This document shows, piece by piece, positions 1,550-9,796 of a DNA stretch of 10,038 bases. Position 1 is the first letter of the stretch. Each line of letters starts with the position of its first letter. The DNA comes from a virus (lineage: Duplodnaviria > Heunggongvirae > Uroviricota > Caudoviricetes), in the IMG/VR virus record IMGVR_UViG_2711768004_000011; one strand, written 5' to 3'. The translations under genes were made by a program, and so were the position numbers. The notes under the pieces were generated by a model that worked only from the letters and a program-made list of their open reading frames with translations, ran no database searches and was not told where the DNA came from.

Positions 1550-2080
1550 TTAGGCGCGACGGCCTTTTTGTGCAGCTAACCACCGCGCAACCGTACGATC
1601 CATTGATTCTTTTTTATCTTTCATCTCCTGAAGCATGTGTTCTTGATCTTCTTTCGGAAAAGCTCTGAACGTATGGATTAAATCTCGTTCCATCGGCTCT
1701 ACGGCAAACGGTAGTTCATCCTCTGTTTGTTCTGTGTCTGCTGGTAATGCGACTATGTTATCTTGCTGTGGTTCTCGACAATACATCCTTGCAATTTGCA
1801 GCAAATCTACCATGTCTGGCCTGATTGACTCAGGGGGAACTTTCAGTAAGCCAGCAAACTTTAGAACAGCCTCAAGGTTTAGTGGGGTTTGACCATTTAG
1901 GTAGTGACTTACCGCCCCTTGTGTTGAAAACCCCATAATTTCCGCCGCACGTTCCTGAGTCAATCCCAACTGAGATTTCTTTGCCATCCAGATTTCTTTC
2001 AGTCTTCTGGCGGCGTTGAGGTCGGTGTCTGACAATGATTTTCTTTTCATACATCCAATTCTAATAAGATTGCTAATCAC
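1550..2080 (-). CDS. CI-like HTH (XRE-family) repressor without S24 peptidase domain; PaaR2-like regulator
   Basis: 176-aa product with a classical HTH: LGLTQERAAEIMGFSTQGAVSHYLNGQTPLNLEAVLKFAGLL. It is divergent from the Cro-like gene and heads the antitoxin-toxin operon with a 19-nt gap. The C-terminal half shows no Ser/Lys peptidase motif. Confidence 0.7.
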   Translation of the reverse strand: MISNLIRIGCMKRKSLSDTDLNAARRLKEIWMAKKSQLGLTQERAAEIMGFSTQGAVSHYLNGQTPLNLEAVLKFAGLLKVPPESIRPDMVDLLQIARMYCREPQQDNIVALPADTEQTEDELPFAVEPMERDLIHTFRAFPKEDQEHMLQEMKDKKESMDRTVARWLAAQKGRRA

Positions 2081-2425: not shown

Positions 2426-2847
2426 AAATCAAGCATGAACACATCCGCATGGCGATGAAAGCCTGGGCGCATCCGGACGGTGAAAAAGTTCCGGCAGCTG
2501 AAATAACCAGGGTTTATTTCGAACTGGGAATGACGTTTCCGGTTCTGCATAACGACAGCAAGCACAACACGCTTTATCTCAACACCCAAAAGATTTTCCG
2601 TTGGCTGGATAAAGACACCCCTGACGCTGTTGAAAAAATTCAGGCGTTGTTACCTGCGATCGAAAGGGCAATGCCACCTCCGCTGGTGGCTCGAATGCGC
2701 AGCCACAGTTCAGCTTATTTTCGGGAACTGGTGGAGACGCATGAACGACTGGTGAGAGACGCTGATGATTTTGTCGCAGTGGCAATCGCCGGTTTCAATC
2801 AGATGAACCGTGGTGGCCCGGCAGGAAATGCTGTGGCAGTACATTGA
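2422..2847 (+). CDS. ydaT: YdaT-family protein (cII-position regulator; toxin YdaT-like domain)
   Basis: 141-aa product starts MKIKHEHI... and ends ...AVAVH, resembling Rac prophage YdaT as I recall it. Position after the cro-like gene matches the Rac ydaS-ydaT arrangement. Confidence 0.6.
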   Translation: MKIKHEHIRMAMKAWAHPDGEKVPAAEITRVYFELGMTFPVLHNDSKHNTLYLNTQKIFRWLDKDTPDAVEKIQALLPAIERAMPPPLVARMRSHSSAYFRELVETHERLVRDADDFVAVAIAGFNQMNRGGPAGNAVAVH

Positions 2848-2918
2848 CTGACAATAGCCATATCGAATCGCTCCCGGCAACTCGTGAGTAAAAAGATTCG
2901 GTATCAGAAGAGGTGAGT

Positions 2919-3983
2919 ATGGCTAACGCCTGGCTCAGATTATGGCATGACATGCCAAATGACCCTAAGTGGCGAACAATTGCCAGGGTGTCAGGGCAGC
3001 CAATTGCAACAGTGATGGCAGTGTATATCCACCTCCTGGTGAGCGCGTCACGAAATGTCACGCGAGGTCACATTGATGTCACGACAGAAGATTTGGCAAG
3101 TGCGCTCGACGTGACAGAAGAGGTAATTGATTCAATTTTGCAGACGATGCAGGGGCGGGTACTTGATGGTGATTTAATCACTGGATGGGAAAAACGCCAG
3201 GTGCTTAAAGAGGACAACGGCAATATTTCGCAAACCGCAAAATCTCCTGCAGAGCGCAAGAGGGCGCAGCGAGAGAGGGAAAGAAAGCGGGAACAAAATG
3301 GCGATTGTCACGGCGCGTCACGAAATGTCACGCACATGTCACGACGAGTCACGACAGATACAGATAAAGATACAGATAAAGAAGATCAAAACACTATGGT
3401 CCATGGCGTAAAAAACGCCACGAACCAGGCAGGGGATGTTCAGACCGTCAATCCTGGTCAGCCAGCAGGCTCGACACCGGAAGCCGATTCAGCGTATGCG
3501 CTGAAAGCCGATTCGGGCGCTGTGCAGCAGGTGATGACCGCAAGGCCGGAGCAATCACTCCAACTGCAGCAGCCTGAAGCCGATTCCGCCATTCAGCGGG
3601 AAGCCGATCGGGTAGCCCCGGAAAACACCGGGCAGCCTGTGGGACGAGTGGATTATCCGGATGTGTTCGAACAGGTCTGGCGGGAATACCCGTTGCGTGC
3701 CGGGGCAAACCCGAAGAAATCCGCATTCAGTGCCTGGAAGGCCAGATTGCGCGAGGGGGTGCCACCAGAGACCATGCTGGATGGTGTGAGGCGTTACGCG
3801 AGATACCTGGCGGCGACCGGGAAAGCGGGAACGGAATTTGTTCAGCGAGCGACGACGTTTTTTGGGCCGGACCGGAATTTTGAAAACCCCTGGTTGCTCC
3901 CGGTAAGCGGCACGAACAACCAGCGTTGTGTGAATCATATTTCTGAACCGGATACCGAAATTCCGCCGGGATTCAGGGGGTGA
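2919..3983 (+). CDS. phage replication initiator (lambda O-like functional analogue; Rac YdaU-position) with internal repeats
   Basis: ATG at 2919 is preceded by GAGG; the ORF-track start is GTG 2913. The gene sits directly upstream of the DnaC-like gene with a 6-nt gap. The coding sequence contains clustered GTCACG motifs and AAGCCGATTC repeats, as expected for an origin embedded in an initiator gene. Confidence 0.55.
   Translation: MANAWLRLWHDMPNDPKWRTIARVSGQPIATVMAVYIHLLVSASRNVTRGHIDVTTEDLASALDVTEEVIDSILQTMQGRVLDGDLITGWEKRQVLKEDNGNISQTAKSPAERKRAQRERERKREQNGDCHGASRNVTHMSRRVTTDTDKDTDKEDQNTMVHGVKNATNQAGDVQTVNPGQPAGSTPEADSAYALKADSGAVQQVMTARPEQSLQLQQPEADSAIQREADRVAPENTGQPVGRVDYPDVFEQVWREYPLRAGANPKKSAFSAWKARLREGVPPETMLDGVRRYARYLAATGKAGTEFVQRATTFFGPDRNFENPWLLPVSGTNNQRCVNHISEPDTEIPPGFRG
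3043..3083. repeat. iteron-like cluster 1: four GTCAC(G/A) motifs; the 21-bp GCGCGTCACGAAATGTCACGC is repeated exactly at 3313-3333
   Basis: GTCACG at 3047, 3057 and 3078, and GTCACA at 3067. The 21-mer at 3043-3063 is identical to 3313-3333. Confidence 0.5.
3307..3384. repeat. iteron-like cluster 2 (five GTCACG motifs, 3307-3353) followed by tandem CAGATAAAGA(T/A)(A/G) repeat (3361-3384)
   Basis: GTCACG at 3307, 3317, 3327, 3338 and 3348. An exact copy of the 21-mer from cluster 1 lies at 3313-3333. Tandem 12-mers follow at 3361-3372 and 3373-3384. Confidence 0.5.
3480..3610. repeat. four phased copies of (G)AAGCCGATTC (3481, 3505, 3577, 3601; the last is AAGCCGATCG)
   Basis: Copies are spaced 24, 72 and 24 bp apart (multiples of 24, in frame). 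They encode a repeated EADS/KADS peptide motif; they may be initiator-binding iterons or simply a protein linker repeat. Confidence 0.4.
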
Positions 3984-3989
3984 TGTGGC

Positions 3990-5071
3990 ATGAAAAACAT
4001 TGCGGCAGCCGGGGTTCTTGAACGTATTCACAGACTTGCACCACAGGGGGCGGTTCCACCGTACCGGACGGTGGAGGAGTGGCGGGNNNNNNNNNNNNNN
4101 NNNNNNNNNNNNNNNNNNNNNNNNNNNNNNNNNNNNNNNNNNNNNNNNNNNNNNNNNNNNNNNNNNNNNNNNNNNNNNNNNNNNNNNNNNNNNNNNNNNN
4201 NNNNNNNNNNNNNNNNNNNNNNNNNNNNNNNNNNNNNNNNNNNNNNNNNNNNNNNNNNNNNNNNNNNNNNNNNNNNNNNNNNNNNNNNNNNNNNNNNNNN
4301 NNNNNNNNNNNNNNNNNNNNNNNNNNNNNNNNNNNNNNNNNNNNNNNNNNNNNNNNNNNNNNNNNNNNNNNNNNNNNNNNNNNNNNNNNNNNNNNNNNNN
4401 NNNNNNNNNNNNNNNNNNNNNNNNNNNNNNNNNNNNNNNNNNNNNNNNNNNNNNNNNNNNNNNNNNNNNNNNNNNNNNNNNNNNNNNNNNNNNNNNNNNN
4501 NNNNNNNNNNNNNNNNNNNNNNNNNNNNNNNNNNNNNNNNNNNNNNNNNNNNNNNNNNNNNNNNNNNNNNNNNNNNNNNNNNNNNNNNCAGGCCAAATCC
4601 ATAGCTGACGAACTGATGACCGGGTGCACGAATTTTGTGTTCAGCGGTAAAACCGGCACCGGGAAAAATCACCTTGCAGCGGCGATGGGTAACCGGCTGA
4701 TGGCGAAGGGGCGCAGCGTGATTATCGTCACCGAGTCTGATGTCATGAGCGTGTTGCATGACAGCTACGACAACGGCAAATCCGGTGAAAAATTTTTACA
4801 GGAGCTTTGCGGGGTTGATTTGCTGGTCCTGGATGAAATAGGCATTCAGCGGGAGACGAAAAACGAGCAGGTGGTATTGCACCAGATAATTGATCGCCGG
4901 ACAGCATCACTGTGCAGTGTCGGGATGTTAACAAACCTGAATCATGCCGCAATGAGCACGCTTCTTGGTGAGAGGATTATGGACCGCATGACCATGAACG
5001 GTTGTCGGTGGGTGACGTTTAACTGGGATAGCTGGCGTTCAAATGTCAGCTTTCCGGGAGTTGTGAAGTAA
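3990..5071 (+). CDS. DnaC-like replicative helicase loader (lambda P analogue; Rac YdaV-like), interrupted by an assembly gap
   Basis: N-terminus MKNIAAAGVLERIHRL resembles E. coli DnaC (MKNVGDLMQRL...). The post-gap part carries Walker A GKTGTGKNHLAAAMG and Walker B LLVLDEIG. The C-terminus ...WVTFNWDSWRSNV matches the DnaC C-terminus as I recall it. The two parts are in different frames across the N-run. Confidence 0.8.
4087..4588. other. assembly gap (502 N)
   Basis: Uninterrupted run of N from 4087 to 4588. Confidence 0.99.
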
Positions 5072-6884: not shown

Positions 6885-8717
6885 ATGGCCCGCATGTTTG
6901 ATACATTAGGATTTTACATTATGAATGTGCAACATTTTGATTTTTTTACAGATAATGAGTTTTCTAATCTGGAAAGATATCAAACTTGTAAAGCCATGGC
7001 CAAAGGTTATGCGGGCAATTACAAAACCGGGCAGTCAAGGTTGATGCATGCCCGCTCATACTGCTTCAGCATCGTAGCTGCATATTGGGATACCCTTGCA
7101 AAAAAGCAAAAAAGCAGCATTAAAATGAGGGCAGTACCGCACACTGTTTACATAGAAGACATTCCATGTGATGCACGCGAGCTCGCTGAACGAACAGGTG
7201 AGCTTATTGCTCAATTTCCGGCGGAGGACGCTGGATATCTGATTGGGTCAATTTATACGGTAATGCTGCCATCCGCTTACCGTTCGGAATTGGGGGCTTA
7301 CTATACCCCCCCACCTTTGGTAGCGCGTCTCTTGGACCTGGCTGAAAAGTCTGGTGTTGATTTTTCTCATGCATCGGTTATTGATCCTGCGTGTGGTGGC
7401 GGTGCATTTTTGGCACCAGTAGCCATTCGAATGTTAAAAAAAGACAAGGGGTCTTCCCCTGAATGGATGTTGAGGAGAATCAGTCGTCGTTTAAAGGGGA
7501 TAGAGATCGATCCATTTGCGGCTTGGATGAGTTTGGTATTGCTCGAATCTGTACTAATGCCACTATGTGTAAAGGTAAAACGTAGATTGCCTGAAGATAC
7601 AATTATTGTTGCTGATGCGCTTCAGCAAGATAAATTTTCTGGTTATGATCTTGTGGTAGGGAATCCGCCTTACGGACGTGTCACTCTCGATATTAAAACG
7701 AGAGAAAAATATTCTCGTTCGTTATTTGGTCATGCAAATCTATATGGATTGTTCACCGACTTAGCTGTTCGCATGGTTAAAGAGAAAACAGGAGTTATTG
7801 CATTTCTTACGCCAACTTCTTTTCTTGGTGGGCAGTATTTCACCGCGCTGCGAACCCTTTTGACCGAAAAAACTACTCCGTATGCCCTTGATTTCGTCAC
7901 TGACAGGGATGGGGTCTTTGACGATGTTCTCCAGGAAACAATGTTGACAGCATTCAAGGCGGGAGAACATAAAGTTCGGGCCCAGGTATCCTCACTTGTC
8001 CCTAAGGGGTTGAACAAAGCAAAAATTGAGAAAATAGGTAATGTTGATATAGAAAAAGGTGGAGCAACGTGGCTTTTGCCACGCGTTAAAGATGATGCCT
8101 GTTTTCTTAATGTATTAAAACAGATGTCTACGCGTTTAGCTGATCTGGGATACTCAGTCTCTACAGGTCAGTTAGTCTGGAATCGATTTAAGTCGCAGTT
8201 GCGTACGACGAAAGGAAAAAATAGCTACCCATTAGTCTGGGCGGAATCAATAACTTCAGCTGGTTTTCGTTTTAGTGCAGACAGAAAAAATCATGTTCCC
8301 TATATCGATATAACCCCACAACAGGGTTTCCTTGTGACAAAATCTGAATGTGTGCTTGTTCAGCGGACAACATCGAAGGAACAGGACAGAAGGATTTTAG
8401 CGGCAATTTTACCTCAGGGATTTATAGATGAAACTGGTGGCGTAGTAGTTGAAAACCATATTAATATTGTATATTCAAACGGATTGTTCTCTGCGGTTCG
8501 CCCTGATGTTATTGATATGCTACTTAATTCGCATGTTGTCGATCGGGCGTTCAGGTGTATAAGCGGAAGTGTTGCTGTTTCGGCCTATGAATTGAATTCA
8601 ATCCCGTTGCCTTCTCTGGAGCAGGTGATGGAGATTCAATCGTTAATTGATGCTGGCGTCCACAGACGGATTATTGAGAGAACTATCGCTGGTTTCTATG
8701 GAGTGATGATTGCATGA
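6885..8717 (+). CDS. gamma-class N6-adenine (amino) DNA methyltransferase, TaqI/Eco57I-like, with C-terminal target-recognition region; start may be ATG 6921
   Basis: Motif X-like GAYYTPPPLVARLL (~7297-7335), motif I VIDPACGGGAFL (~7383-7412) and motif IV VVGNPPYGRV (~7656-7682) occur in gamma-class order. They align with M.TaqI (ETPPEVV / LEPACAHGPFL / LGNPPYG) as I recall it. GC content is markedly lower than in the phage replication genes. Confidence 0.85.
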   Translation: MARMFDTLGFYIMNVQHFDFFTDNEFSNLERYQTCKAMAKGYAGNYKTGQSRLMHARSYCFSIVAAYWDTLAKKQKSSIKMRAVPHTVYIEDIPCDARELAERTGELIAQFPAEDAGYLIGSIYTVMLPSAYRSELGAYYTPPPLVARLLDLAEKSGVDFSHASVIDPACGGGAFLAPVAIRMLKKDKGSSPEWMLRRISRRLKGIEIDPFAAWMSLVLLESVLMPLCVKVKRRLPEDTIIVADALQQDKFSGYDLVVGNPPYGRVTLDIKTREKYSRSLFGHANLYGLFTDLAVRMVKEKTGVIAFLTPTSFLGGQYFTALRTLLTEKTTPYALDFVTDRDGVFDDVLQETMLTAFKAGEHKVRAQVSSLVPKGLNKAKIEKIGNVDIEKGGATWLLPRVKDDACFLNVLKQMSTRLADLGYSVSTGQLVWNRFKSQLRTTKGKNSYPLVWAESITSAGFRFSADRKNHVPYIDITPQQGFLVTKSECVLVQRTTSKEQDRRILAAILPQGFIDETGGVVVENHINIVYSNGLFSAVRPDVIDMLLNSHVVDRAFRCISGSVAVSAYELNSIPLPSLEQVMEIQSLIDAGVHRRIIERTIAGFYGVMIA

Positions 8718-9796
8718 ATCTGCCTGTTGTTCCCCCATTGAATGTTATCCGGGAAAGATTACAATTAATTTTCCCTGAAGGGACTGAGAATCGTGGATAT
8801 TTAATTCGGGAAATAGCTGCAAAAACAATTTTTGTCATGTTTTATGCTGGTGCGGTTGAGGGGCTGGGGCGATGGATAAGGCCCAGCCAGGTTGTAAGTA
8901 TGGGAGATTCGCAGGCTGCTCTTACTGATGATGCGTCCAGAGAAAGCTGGGTAAAGATGACTTTCTCTAAACAAAAGATAAGGCCTGCTGATGCATGGTA
9001 TGCGGAAAATACGCGTGAGCCAATACGTGATGAAACTATAAAAAATGGCCTAATACCTTGCAATGCAATTGTTGAGCGTAAAGGTATACCCACCACATCC
9101 TCTCGTCCTCGTTACAGTTTGAATCGCTCTTTTGCAGCACTCTTTGATGCCGGGCTTGAAGGAGATTCGCTGCTGAGTGCAATAAGTTCCTGGCAAGAAA
9201 ATCATTTGAACAAAGCCGCTCTTGCTAGGTTGCGTTTATTGAAATCAGGGGCAGTGATTGCTGCTGATGCCGTAGTCGTCACTTTCCCAAATGGAGAGAA
9301 GAGAACTTTAGCTCCGGGCCCGTCAAGTACAATAGCTAAGGCCGTCATCGAAGTTTTTGCTCCTAATTTTCTTAAGAATCCAACTGTGCTCTGGTTGTCT
9401 GAATCCGGGAATAAAGTTGTTGCTCAGGATGATGTATTGGCAAAAGCATTGGGGCTGAATATTGATGCCTCAAAAGCACTTCCAGATATTATTTTGATTG
9501 ATTTGGGAGAGGACCGAACGGGTTCGGACATGCTTGTAGTTTTCACTGAAGTAGTTGCGACAGATGGGCCTATAAACAGGGAACGAAAAGTTACTCTCAC
9601 TCATTTGGCTATTGACGCTGGGTTCAGCGAGAAAAATCTTGCATTCCTTACGGCATTTATGGACAGAAGTGCTCTGCCTTTTAAAAAGGCAATACCAGAA
9701 TTGGCGTGGGGATCTTATGCATGGTTTGCTTCTGAACCGGAGCACTTAATTGATCTTCGGGATGGTTATCCGGTAAAGATCAGCCAGAGAAAATGA
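8714..9796 (+). CDS. partner of the methyltransferase: putative restriction endonuclease (possibly BsuBI/PstI-like); function not established
   Basis: 360-aa ORF whose ATG overlaps the MTase stop (ATGA at 8714-8717), with the same low-GC composition. A possible degenerate nuclease core lies at ALPDIILIDLGEDRTGSDMLVVFTEVVATDG. The family assignment is from weak recall, not a search. Confidence 0.5.
   Translation: MNLPVVPPLNVIRERLQLIFPEGTENRGYLIREIAAKTIFVMFYAGAVEGLGRWIRPSQVVSMGDSQAALTDDASRESWVKMTFSKQKIRPADAWYAENTREPIRDETIKNGLIPCNAIVERKGIPTTSSRPRYSLNRSFAALFDAGLEGDSLLSAISSWQENHLNKAALARLRLLKSGAVIAADAVVVTFPNGEKRTLAPGPSSTIAKAVIEVFAPNFLKNPTVLWLSESGNKVVAQDDVLAKALGLNIDASKALPDIILIDLGEDRTGSDMLVVFTEVVATDGPINRERKVTLTHLAIDAGFSEKNLAFLTAFMDRSALPFKKAIPELAWGSYAWFASEPEHLIDLRDGYPVKISQRK

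Follow-up and report, generated by a model that had tools for sequence, protein, structure and literature searches.

A likely prophage replication origin embedded in the gene for its own initiator

Two arrays of a short motif within an initiator gene

In a 10,038-nucleotide stretch of a tailed-phage genome (Caudoviricetes; IMG/VR record IMGVR_UViG_2711768004_000011), the whole of which we term the window, we confirmed two arrays of the hexamer GTCACG within the gene of a predicted replication initiator. The window covers the immunity and early-right region of an Escherichia coli lambdoid prophage, in which genes for cI-like, cro-like and cII/YdaT-like proteins are followed by the initiator gene and by a gene for a DnaC/IstB-like helicase loader. 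The initiator gene (2919..3983, plus strand) is an open reading frame whose 354-amino-acid (aa) translation matches phrog_3729, “replication initiation protein”, from end to end (E=3e-250), and its relatives carry the NCBI name “phage replisome organizer”. Over positions 2800-3981 the window shares 96-97.5% identity with seven phage records, among them the Escherichia phages Tritos, Evi and vB_EcoS-640R1. We propose, with a probability of roughly 80%, that the segment 3047-3427 is the theta-type replication origin of the prophage, located within the gene that encodes its initiator. The original prediction had likewise placed a candidate origin within this gene; conservation at the level of DNA argues for such a function, and the gene context also fits, in that the arrays lie inside the initiator frame, upstream of the loader gene and in the early rightward operon, which is the placement of the lambda type.

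GTCACG occurs nine times in the window, where 3.3 copies would be expected, and all nine fall within 3047-3353; by our own arithmetic, the chance that nine random sites would all fall within 307 bp of about 9.5 kb is about 1e-11. Array 1 (3047..3083, plus strand) is made up of GTCACG at 3047, 3057 and 3078 and of GTCACA at 3067, with spacings of 10, 10 and 11 bp; of the four GTCACG copies predicted here, three are thus exact and one is a variant. A single inverted GTCACG (3110..3115, minus strand) is found 27 bp downstream of it. Array 2 (3307..3353, plus strand) lies about 260 bp away from array 1 in the linker-coding region, and its five predicted units were all located as exact copies at 3307, 3317, 3327, 3338 and 3348, with spacings of 10, 10, 11 and 10 bp. 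The spacing in both arrays amounts to one unit per helical turn (10-11 bp), and the units occupy all three codon phases. Two further repeats of the original prediction were recovered as described, namely an exact 21-bp repeat, GCGCGTCACGAAATGTCACGC, at 3043-3063 and 3313-3333, 270 bp apart, and a tandem 12-mer after array 2, AGATACAGATAA, present twice at 3356-3379. Phage Tritos, whose genome of 46 kb is complete, has 25 GTCACG sites, of which 9 fall in this stretch of about 300 bp; the other 16 are unclustered, the closest pair being 73 bp apart.

Directly downstream of array 2 comes an A-rich tract of low GC content (ACAGATACAGATAAAGATACAGATAAAGAAGATCAAAACACTA; 3354..3396, plus strand; 28% GC, with 58% A on the top strand), which we regard as a candidate DNA-unwinding element; the 40 nucleotides from 3360 to 3399 have the lowest GC fraction in the initiator gene (0.30). 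The tract is followed by an imperfect palindrome, TGGTCCATGGCGTAAAAAACGCCACGAACCA (3397..3427), with a stem of 13 pairs and a loop of 5 nucleotides, which folds as single-stranded DNA at -8.7 kcal/mol (z=-3.9). The A-rich tract also has a GATC (Dam) site at its distal end (3385-3388, …AAAGATCTAAAAGATC…). A GATC in the same position recurs in the homologous loci L007, L015, L022, L026, L034, L047 and L048, where it could either be a by-product of the codons for DKDLK or a methylation or SeqA-sensitive feature of the origin.

Conservation of the arrays in homologous genes

A scan with one genome per species recovered 44 homologous loci from Beta- and Gammaproteobacteria, including Escherichia, Shigella, Serratia, Rahnella, Pantoea, Pseudomonas, Bordetella, Acidovorax, Chromobacterium, Aquitalea and Gilvimarinus. 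GTCACG is the most frequent hexamer of about 25 of the 37 homologous genes and is nearly absent from their 5-6 kb flanks. In about 25 of the 37, both arrays keep their offsets, +128, +138, +148 and +159 and about +380 to +430, with these positions being shared across Escherichia, Serratia, Rahnella, Pseudomonas, Bordetella, Acidovorax, Chromobacterium, Aquitalea and others; in the homologues array 2 has three to five units. An inverted GTCACG at offset +191, as in the window, is also seen in 12 of the other 25 GTCACG-type genes listed. Among the 127 unit spacings below 40 bp in 22 homologous genes, 92 measure 10 bp and 28 measure 11 bp; in these genes the flanks of the 6-bp core are weakly conserved and no dyad is seen.

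The original prediction had allowed that the repeats could equally be a repetitive protein linker and had proposed the conservation of synonymous sites as a check. When run on 19 homologous genes (first 110 residues; mean identity 72%, minimum 61%), this comparison returned a major-allele frequency of 0.98 at the third codon positions of the four array-1 cores (n=8) versus 0.55 elsewhere (n=98; Mann-Whitney p=9e-6), the cores being fixed and the spacers varying. Codon usage in 20 genes, a set slightly larger than this one, gives the same picture: at the iteron positions valine is encoded by GTC in 20/20 genes (background use 22%), threonine by ACG in 20/20 (25%), alanine by GCG in 18/20 (21%) and serine by TCA in 19/20 (16%), and the spacer codons between the cores vary, including non-synonymously. 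The outcome named beforehand as telling against an origin, the same peptides encoded by freely varying DNA, was not seen, and the opposite was found for GTCACG.

The motif also changes in concert. In L021, L024, L032, L034, L046 and L048, GTAACG replaces GTCACG in both arrays, as does CGAACG in L029, L031 and L033. In L003, array 1 is longer by 21 bp, which corresponds to two whole units and 7 extra aa, such that the length of the encoded loop shifts by whole units. L026 groups with the GTAACG-type loci L021 and L024, yet carries GTCACG, and a search for residues of the N-terminal domain co-varying with the iteron type yielded nothing convincing outside the loop that the iterons themselves encode. 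Thus, the occupation of three codon phases, the synonymous conservation and the fixed position and co-variation of the units together favour an interpretation of the GTCACG arrays as elements acting at the level of DNA, rather than as a peptide repeat; as regards these units, the data speak against the linker allowed for in the original prediction.

The A-rich tract has counterparts of its own: a (GATAAA)n or (GATACA)n tract comes after array 2 in homologues of all three iteron types, and such a tract is present also in L028, L030 and L035, in which no more than one copy of the three motifs is found. A perfect inverted repeat of at least 6 bp within 70 nucleotides after the A-tract was found in 18 of 36 homologues versus 18% of control windows, and the inverted-repeat sequences of different homologues are mutually unrelated.

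Architecture and mosaic structure of the initiator

The initiator comprises a helical N-terminal domain (N-domain; residues ~1-128), a disordered linker (~129-243), a C-terminal domain (C-domain) and a DnaT-like C-terminal tail. A Pfam search with it returned no family at E<=0.01, with Phage_rep_O (PF04492) not being matched, and at E<=5 only sub-threshold hits to HTH_Crp_2, Phage_rep_org_N and PhyR_sigma2. The N-domain aligns with the whole of the TIGR01714 model (1-119 of 119) at E=0.015 and 15.4 bits (cut-off 49.8), and PF09681 (cut-off 23.3 bits) is matched at E of about 0.1 in 6 of 17 members. An AlphaFold2 (AF2) model, usable for coarse features only given a mean predicted local distance difference test (pLDDT) score of 53, has residues 129-243 disordered, and places the codons of array 1 in a low-confidence loop of the N-domain between helices (residues about 44-55, with pLDDT <50 at residues 47-52). 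On this model, the codons of the two arrays fall in a predicted surface loop and in the disordered linker, where the protein would tolerate residues dictated by the DNA. A Foldseek search of the model against the PDB found nothing at E<2; its top weak matches, winged-helix regulators, were not used as evidence.

The last ~16-24 residues (window 3933-3983, ...NHISEPDTEIPPGFRG) match the extreme C-terminus of the host primosomal protein DnaT: the alignment to NF002770 covers positions 156-179, i.e., only the last 24 residues, at E=0.0016 and 18 bits (cut-off 201). As the tail alone matches this model, the similarity to DnaT does not extend over the full length. A PDB sequence search with the initiator likewise recovered only the DnaT tail, and the DnaT C-domain chains 6aep and 2ru8 end in ...SEPDNHIPPGFRG. 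The DnaT-like tail is kept in C-terminal modules (C-modules) joined to different N-domains. In the host, dnaT is the gene immediately preceding dnaC (PMC5778457); in the window, the initiator gene is directly upstream of the dnaC-like gene. These observations suggest that the tail is a shared short motif that engages the DnaC/DnaB loading step.

The gene is a mosaic. BLAST matches in E. coli cover either gene positions 1-458 or 466/470-1065, with breakpoints at 458-470, and a joint placed by this split lies in the A-rich tract; the joint zone corresponds to window 3377-3400 (A-rich tract and “NTMVHG” codons). In E. coli the N-domain and both arrays travel as one mosaic module. A single C-half, consisting of the palindrome, the EADS linker and the C-domain, is fused in E. 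coli proteins to at least three N-domains, namely those of the window type, the MRDYAKVSPRFWLG type (P0033) and the MARYRKVEVKTW type (P0114), and the window-type N-half is fused in O157 strains to “DnaT-like ssDNA-binding” C-halves (PF17948). Beyond the gene, the GTCACG-type loci differ both upstream, where genes for HTH_3, CII, a phosphoadenosine phosphosulfate (PAPS)-reductase-like protein, a methylase or an unknown protein are found, and downstream, where the loader is lambda P-like in L004, IstB-like in L014 and the window, and unknown elsewhere. The only constant partner of the GTCACG arrays is the N-domain, and we infer from these associations that it is the domain that binds GTCACG.

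In L043 (Pantoea) and L039 (a Serratia metagenome-assembled genome), array 2 is replaced by an inserted, folded linker segment of ~100 aa (e.g., “YYVYFVVLRSNYDCYVGISSNPWARVNDLKKG”), which is bordered by TACGTAGTA and GTAGTACTACG repeats and which we take to be reminiscent of a GIY-YIG/T5orf172-type domain. In the window, the linker is marked by four copies of AAGCCGAT (3481..3608, plus strand), where 0.32 copies would be expected and none of 200 shuffles reaches four. The copies had been predicted to be phased at 24-bp multiples, and the gaps between them (24, 72 and 24 bp, for copies at 3481, 3505, 3577 and 3601) are as claimed. The fourth copy deviates, reading AAGCCGATCG and not ...TTC. All four share one frame and encode EADS, KADS, EADS and EADR. 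They are part of the C-module and not of the iteron module: among C-module relatives their number varies from 1 to 4, close E. coli variants differ by the in-frame loss of 8, 24 or 32 residues, the breakpoints falling at AAGCCGAT copies, homologues at 47-52% identity keep a pair of copies that lie 24 bp apart and use identical codons, and more distant C-domain relatives have none. Given the single frame, the spacing in multiples of three, the varying copy number and the absence from distant relatives, the AAGCCGAT repeats are more likely a protein linker of variable copy number outside the origin core, and for them the linker allowed for in the original prediction appears apt. A DNA role is conceivable because alanine is GCC and aspartate is GAT in all 10 AAGCCGAT copies of four genes; we have set aside as unlikely the idea that these repeats are a second class of origin sites.

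The gene is common, with 1647 of 5426 complete E. coli genomes holding at least 80% of it. A plasmid search for natural minimal replicons with the initiator gene alone returned 11 matches, all of them large plasmids, phage-like 51-kb circles or misfiled chromosomes.

A proposed origin, its alternatives and its surroundings

If the segment 3047-3427 is indeed an origin, the N-domain would bind neighbouring GTCACG units along a single face of the helix and oligomerise over array 2, probably bridging to array 1 ~260 bp away in a complex resembling an O-some. On supercoiled DNA, such a complex could destabilise the adjacent A-rich tract, and the C-domain and the DnaT-like tail would then recruit the helicase onto the melted strands by way of either the DnaC-like loader encoded next door or the DnaC of the host. 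A search of the open-access literature found no description of this origin.

By layout, the element is analogous to both ori lambda and oriL of phage SPP1. In ori lambda, a palindrome comes after the AT-rich tract, and the N-half of the initiator and the iterons constitute one specificity module. The window resembles lambda in that the proposed origin sits inside the initiator gene, between a presumed DNA-binding N-half and a presumed loader-binding C-half, in a rightward early operon, and in that direct repeats, an AT-rich tract immediately after them and a palindrome come in the same order. The ori of lambda lies in the middle of gene O, with iterons and an AT-rich tract, and in Shiga toxin (Stx) phages two extra iterons add 13 aa to O (PMC7466680). 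Here too, added units lengthen the protein, as in L003. The parallel with O drawn in the original prediction does not extend to homology of the proteins, since the initiator is not an O homologue. Further differences from lambda are a 6-bp core repeated every 10-11 bp with no dyad symmetry versus four or more tandem iterons of ~19 bp that have internal inverted symmetry, two arrays 260 bp apart of which one lies within codons of the N-domain, and a DnaC/IstB-like loader rather than lambda P.

In phage SPP1, oriL lies within gene 38 and has AB-box repeats, which the organizer binds, and an unwinding element, with a 356-bp fragment being sufficient in vitro (PMC5737612). The window shares with it the placement of the proposed origin repeats and AT-rich element in the replisome-organizer gene, a loader gene directly after this gene and an initiator with no AAA+ domain (PMC5737612), and it differs in host, repeat sequence and loader family. 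Homology to the SPP1 initiator G38P could not be demonstrated, as hhalign with alignment A1 returned a probability of 0.2% and E=0.31 over a stretch of 54 columns in the C-domain only. SPP1 gene 38 (L052, locus 596-627) was itself seen to contain three AACAATGAWAACAA repeats with 9-bp spacing within its coding sequence. Short repeats are also a feature of satellite phage P4, whose ori and crr have octamers, and of the origins of Staphylococcus aureus pathogenicity islands (SaPIs), where short repeats flank an AT-rich region. These systems share with the window short (6-8 bp) initiator-binding repeats and two separated clusters in cis; they differ from it in that their initiators are helicase/primase fusions of unrelated families and that the clusters are not known to lie within the sequence coding for the DNA-binding domain. 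What sets the window apart from lambda and SPP1 is the combination of a 6-bp core occurring once per turn, two arrays and the location of array 1 in the codons of the N-domain.

Other interpretations may be entertained, foremost that the arrays are control sites bound by the initiator for titration, handcuffing, incompatibility or exclusion, with array 1 being auxiliary or negative and initiation occurring elsewhere. The separation of the arrays by ~260 bp, with array 2 alone abutting the A-rich tract, would accord with this, and there is precedent in bipartite or auxiliary iteron sets such as P4 ori and crr and the control iterons of plasmids; for SPP1 G38P, too, a second binding site, oriR, is described (PMC5737612, PMC3485210). 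We nevertheless hold this to be improbable: array 2 with its A-rich tract is laid out like a canonical origin core and is conserved more universally than any other part, the complete genome of the relative Tritos has no other cluster, and control and origin roles are mutually compatible in any case. Smaller still is the likelihood that the A-rich tract and palindrome are an intrinsic terminator of antisense (leftward) transcription or a mere recombination joint. The minus strand from 3427 to 3397 is flagged as terminator-like, with the 13-pair stem followed by a T-rich run, and every homologue with an inverted repeat has the T-rich complement of its A-tract after it on that strand; the mosaic breakpoints at gene positions 458-470, with a joint that links three N-domains to the C-module, would be accounted for as well. 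However, the T-run is interrupted (TAGTGTTTTG), terminator-like matches in the region are at chance (4 versus 3.2 expected), no antisense promoter is evident downstream, and the tract is always directly beside the iterons, whatever the iteron sequence.

We give the least credence of all to the repeats being a by-product, with no DNA function, of a repetitive or low-complexity protein segment (SRNVT, EADS). The 21-bp repeat does encode ASRNVT twice, and the AAGCCGAT copies, in one frame at multiples of three, 1-4 in number and located in a segment modelled as disordered, fit such a by-product. For GTCACG, however, it is refuted by a 10/11-bp period running through all three codon phases and by synonymous positions being fixed as intervening residues change, and both arrays switching motif together also speaks against it; it applies at best to AAGCCGAT, and even there the GCC and GAT codons are constant in 10 copies.

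Several points weigh against the proposal that the segment is an origin. Several homologues (L028, L030, L035, L039 and L043) carry at most one copy of the three motifs, half of the homologues are without an inverted repeat after the A-tract, and all the conservation statistics are inflated by shared ancestry. A 6-bp core with a period of 10-11 bp is unlike the classical iterons of 17-22 bp, and the N-domain is weakly related to known DNA-binding and replisome-organizer domains, its matches to PF09681 and TIGR01714 being below cut-off. Moreover, array 1 could have a regulatory function instead of belonging to the initiation site, and origin function is something we infer from sequence.

The layout is not confined to one family of initiators. 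In L037, L040 and L042 (Citrobacter and Raoultella), where an N-domain without evident similarity to that of the window (“MRDYATVAPQFWLG”) is joined to the same C-module, the motif AAGGGGC forms two pairs, at +184/+195 and +439/+450, with a spacing of 11 bp within the pairs, a distance of 255 bp between them and codon phases that differ. The plus strand of L037 and L042 holds no further copy of AAGGGGC, and that of L040 holds a single extra one, in the flank. Immediately after the second pair come a purine-rich (GATCAGGAACAG)n tract and an inverted repeat. The recurrence of the bipartite layout with another motif in another initiator family suggests a general design rule rather than the quirk of one family. 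It is conceivable, although we put it forward tentatively, that there is a widespread class of proteobacterial prophage origins of bipartite form, with array 1, made of hexamers at one per turn, in the codons for a surface loop of the very domain that reads it, array 2 ~255-260 bp downstream beside a purine-rich tract and an inverted repeat, and both being needed in cis; the two arrays could then loop or wrap ~260 bp around an initiator oligomer.

Annotation of this gene in the records goes no further than “phage replisome organizer” or “hypothetical protein”, without an origin being marked. An origin at this location would provide a testable minimal replicon, and would explain the odd conserved peptides, the length polymorphism of the protein and the mosaic joint of the gene. 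The iteron type would be a simple sequence marker of replication specificity and possibly of incompatibility among lambdoid prophages in one cell; if so, GTCACG, GTAACG and CGAACG would define replication-incompatibility types among co-resident prophages. Arrays with one hexamer per turn in a two-array layout would also offer a new case for DNA opening by initiators without an AAA+ domain.

As for the remaining content of the window, an Rfam scan of it returned no family, and its promoter and terminator scans gave matches at chance level only. DnaA boxes (TTATNCACA, 1 mismatch) number 7 versus 8.4 expected, with none within the element; as they are not enriched, a DnaA-dependent origin is not proposed. 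Upstream of the initiator gene are those for a cI/DicA-like repressor (1550-2080, minus strand), a cro-like helix-turn-helix protein (2135-2425) and a cII/YdaT-like protein (2422-2847). Downstream of it, the gene for the DnaC/IstB-like AAA+ helicase loader (3990..5071, plus strand) is interrupted by a run of 502 N (4087-4588), and its part at 4589-5071 matches the Pfam family IstB_IS21 (E=5e-18). In E. coli E2863 an intact 248-aa “ATP-binding protein” is encoded at the loader position, and in L046-L048 a DnaC/IstB-like partner likewise follows the initiator. The DnaC-like gene measures 747 bp in the closest complete genomes versus 1082 bp from start to stop in the window, where its reading frame is shifted; hence, the run of N is either ~335 bp longer than the sequence it replaced or hides an insertion. 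In phage Tritos (L001/L050; OV696610.1, 32105-33638), an initiator of 97% identity is followed by a 140-aa hypothetical protein rather than a DnaC-like loader, and its 46-kb genome has no further replication gene annotated. Judging from Tritos, this type of initiator may apparently rely on host loading factors alone. Finally, the early region of the prophage bears a restriction-modification pair (6885-9796), in which the gene for a 610-aa N6-adenine methylase with Eco57I/N6_Mtase domains overlaps that for a 360-aa endonuclease of the BsuBI/PstI family.

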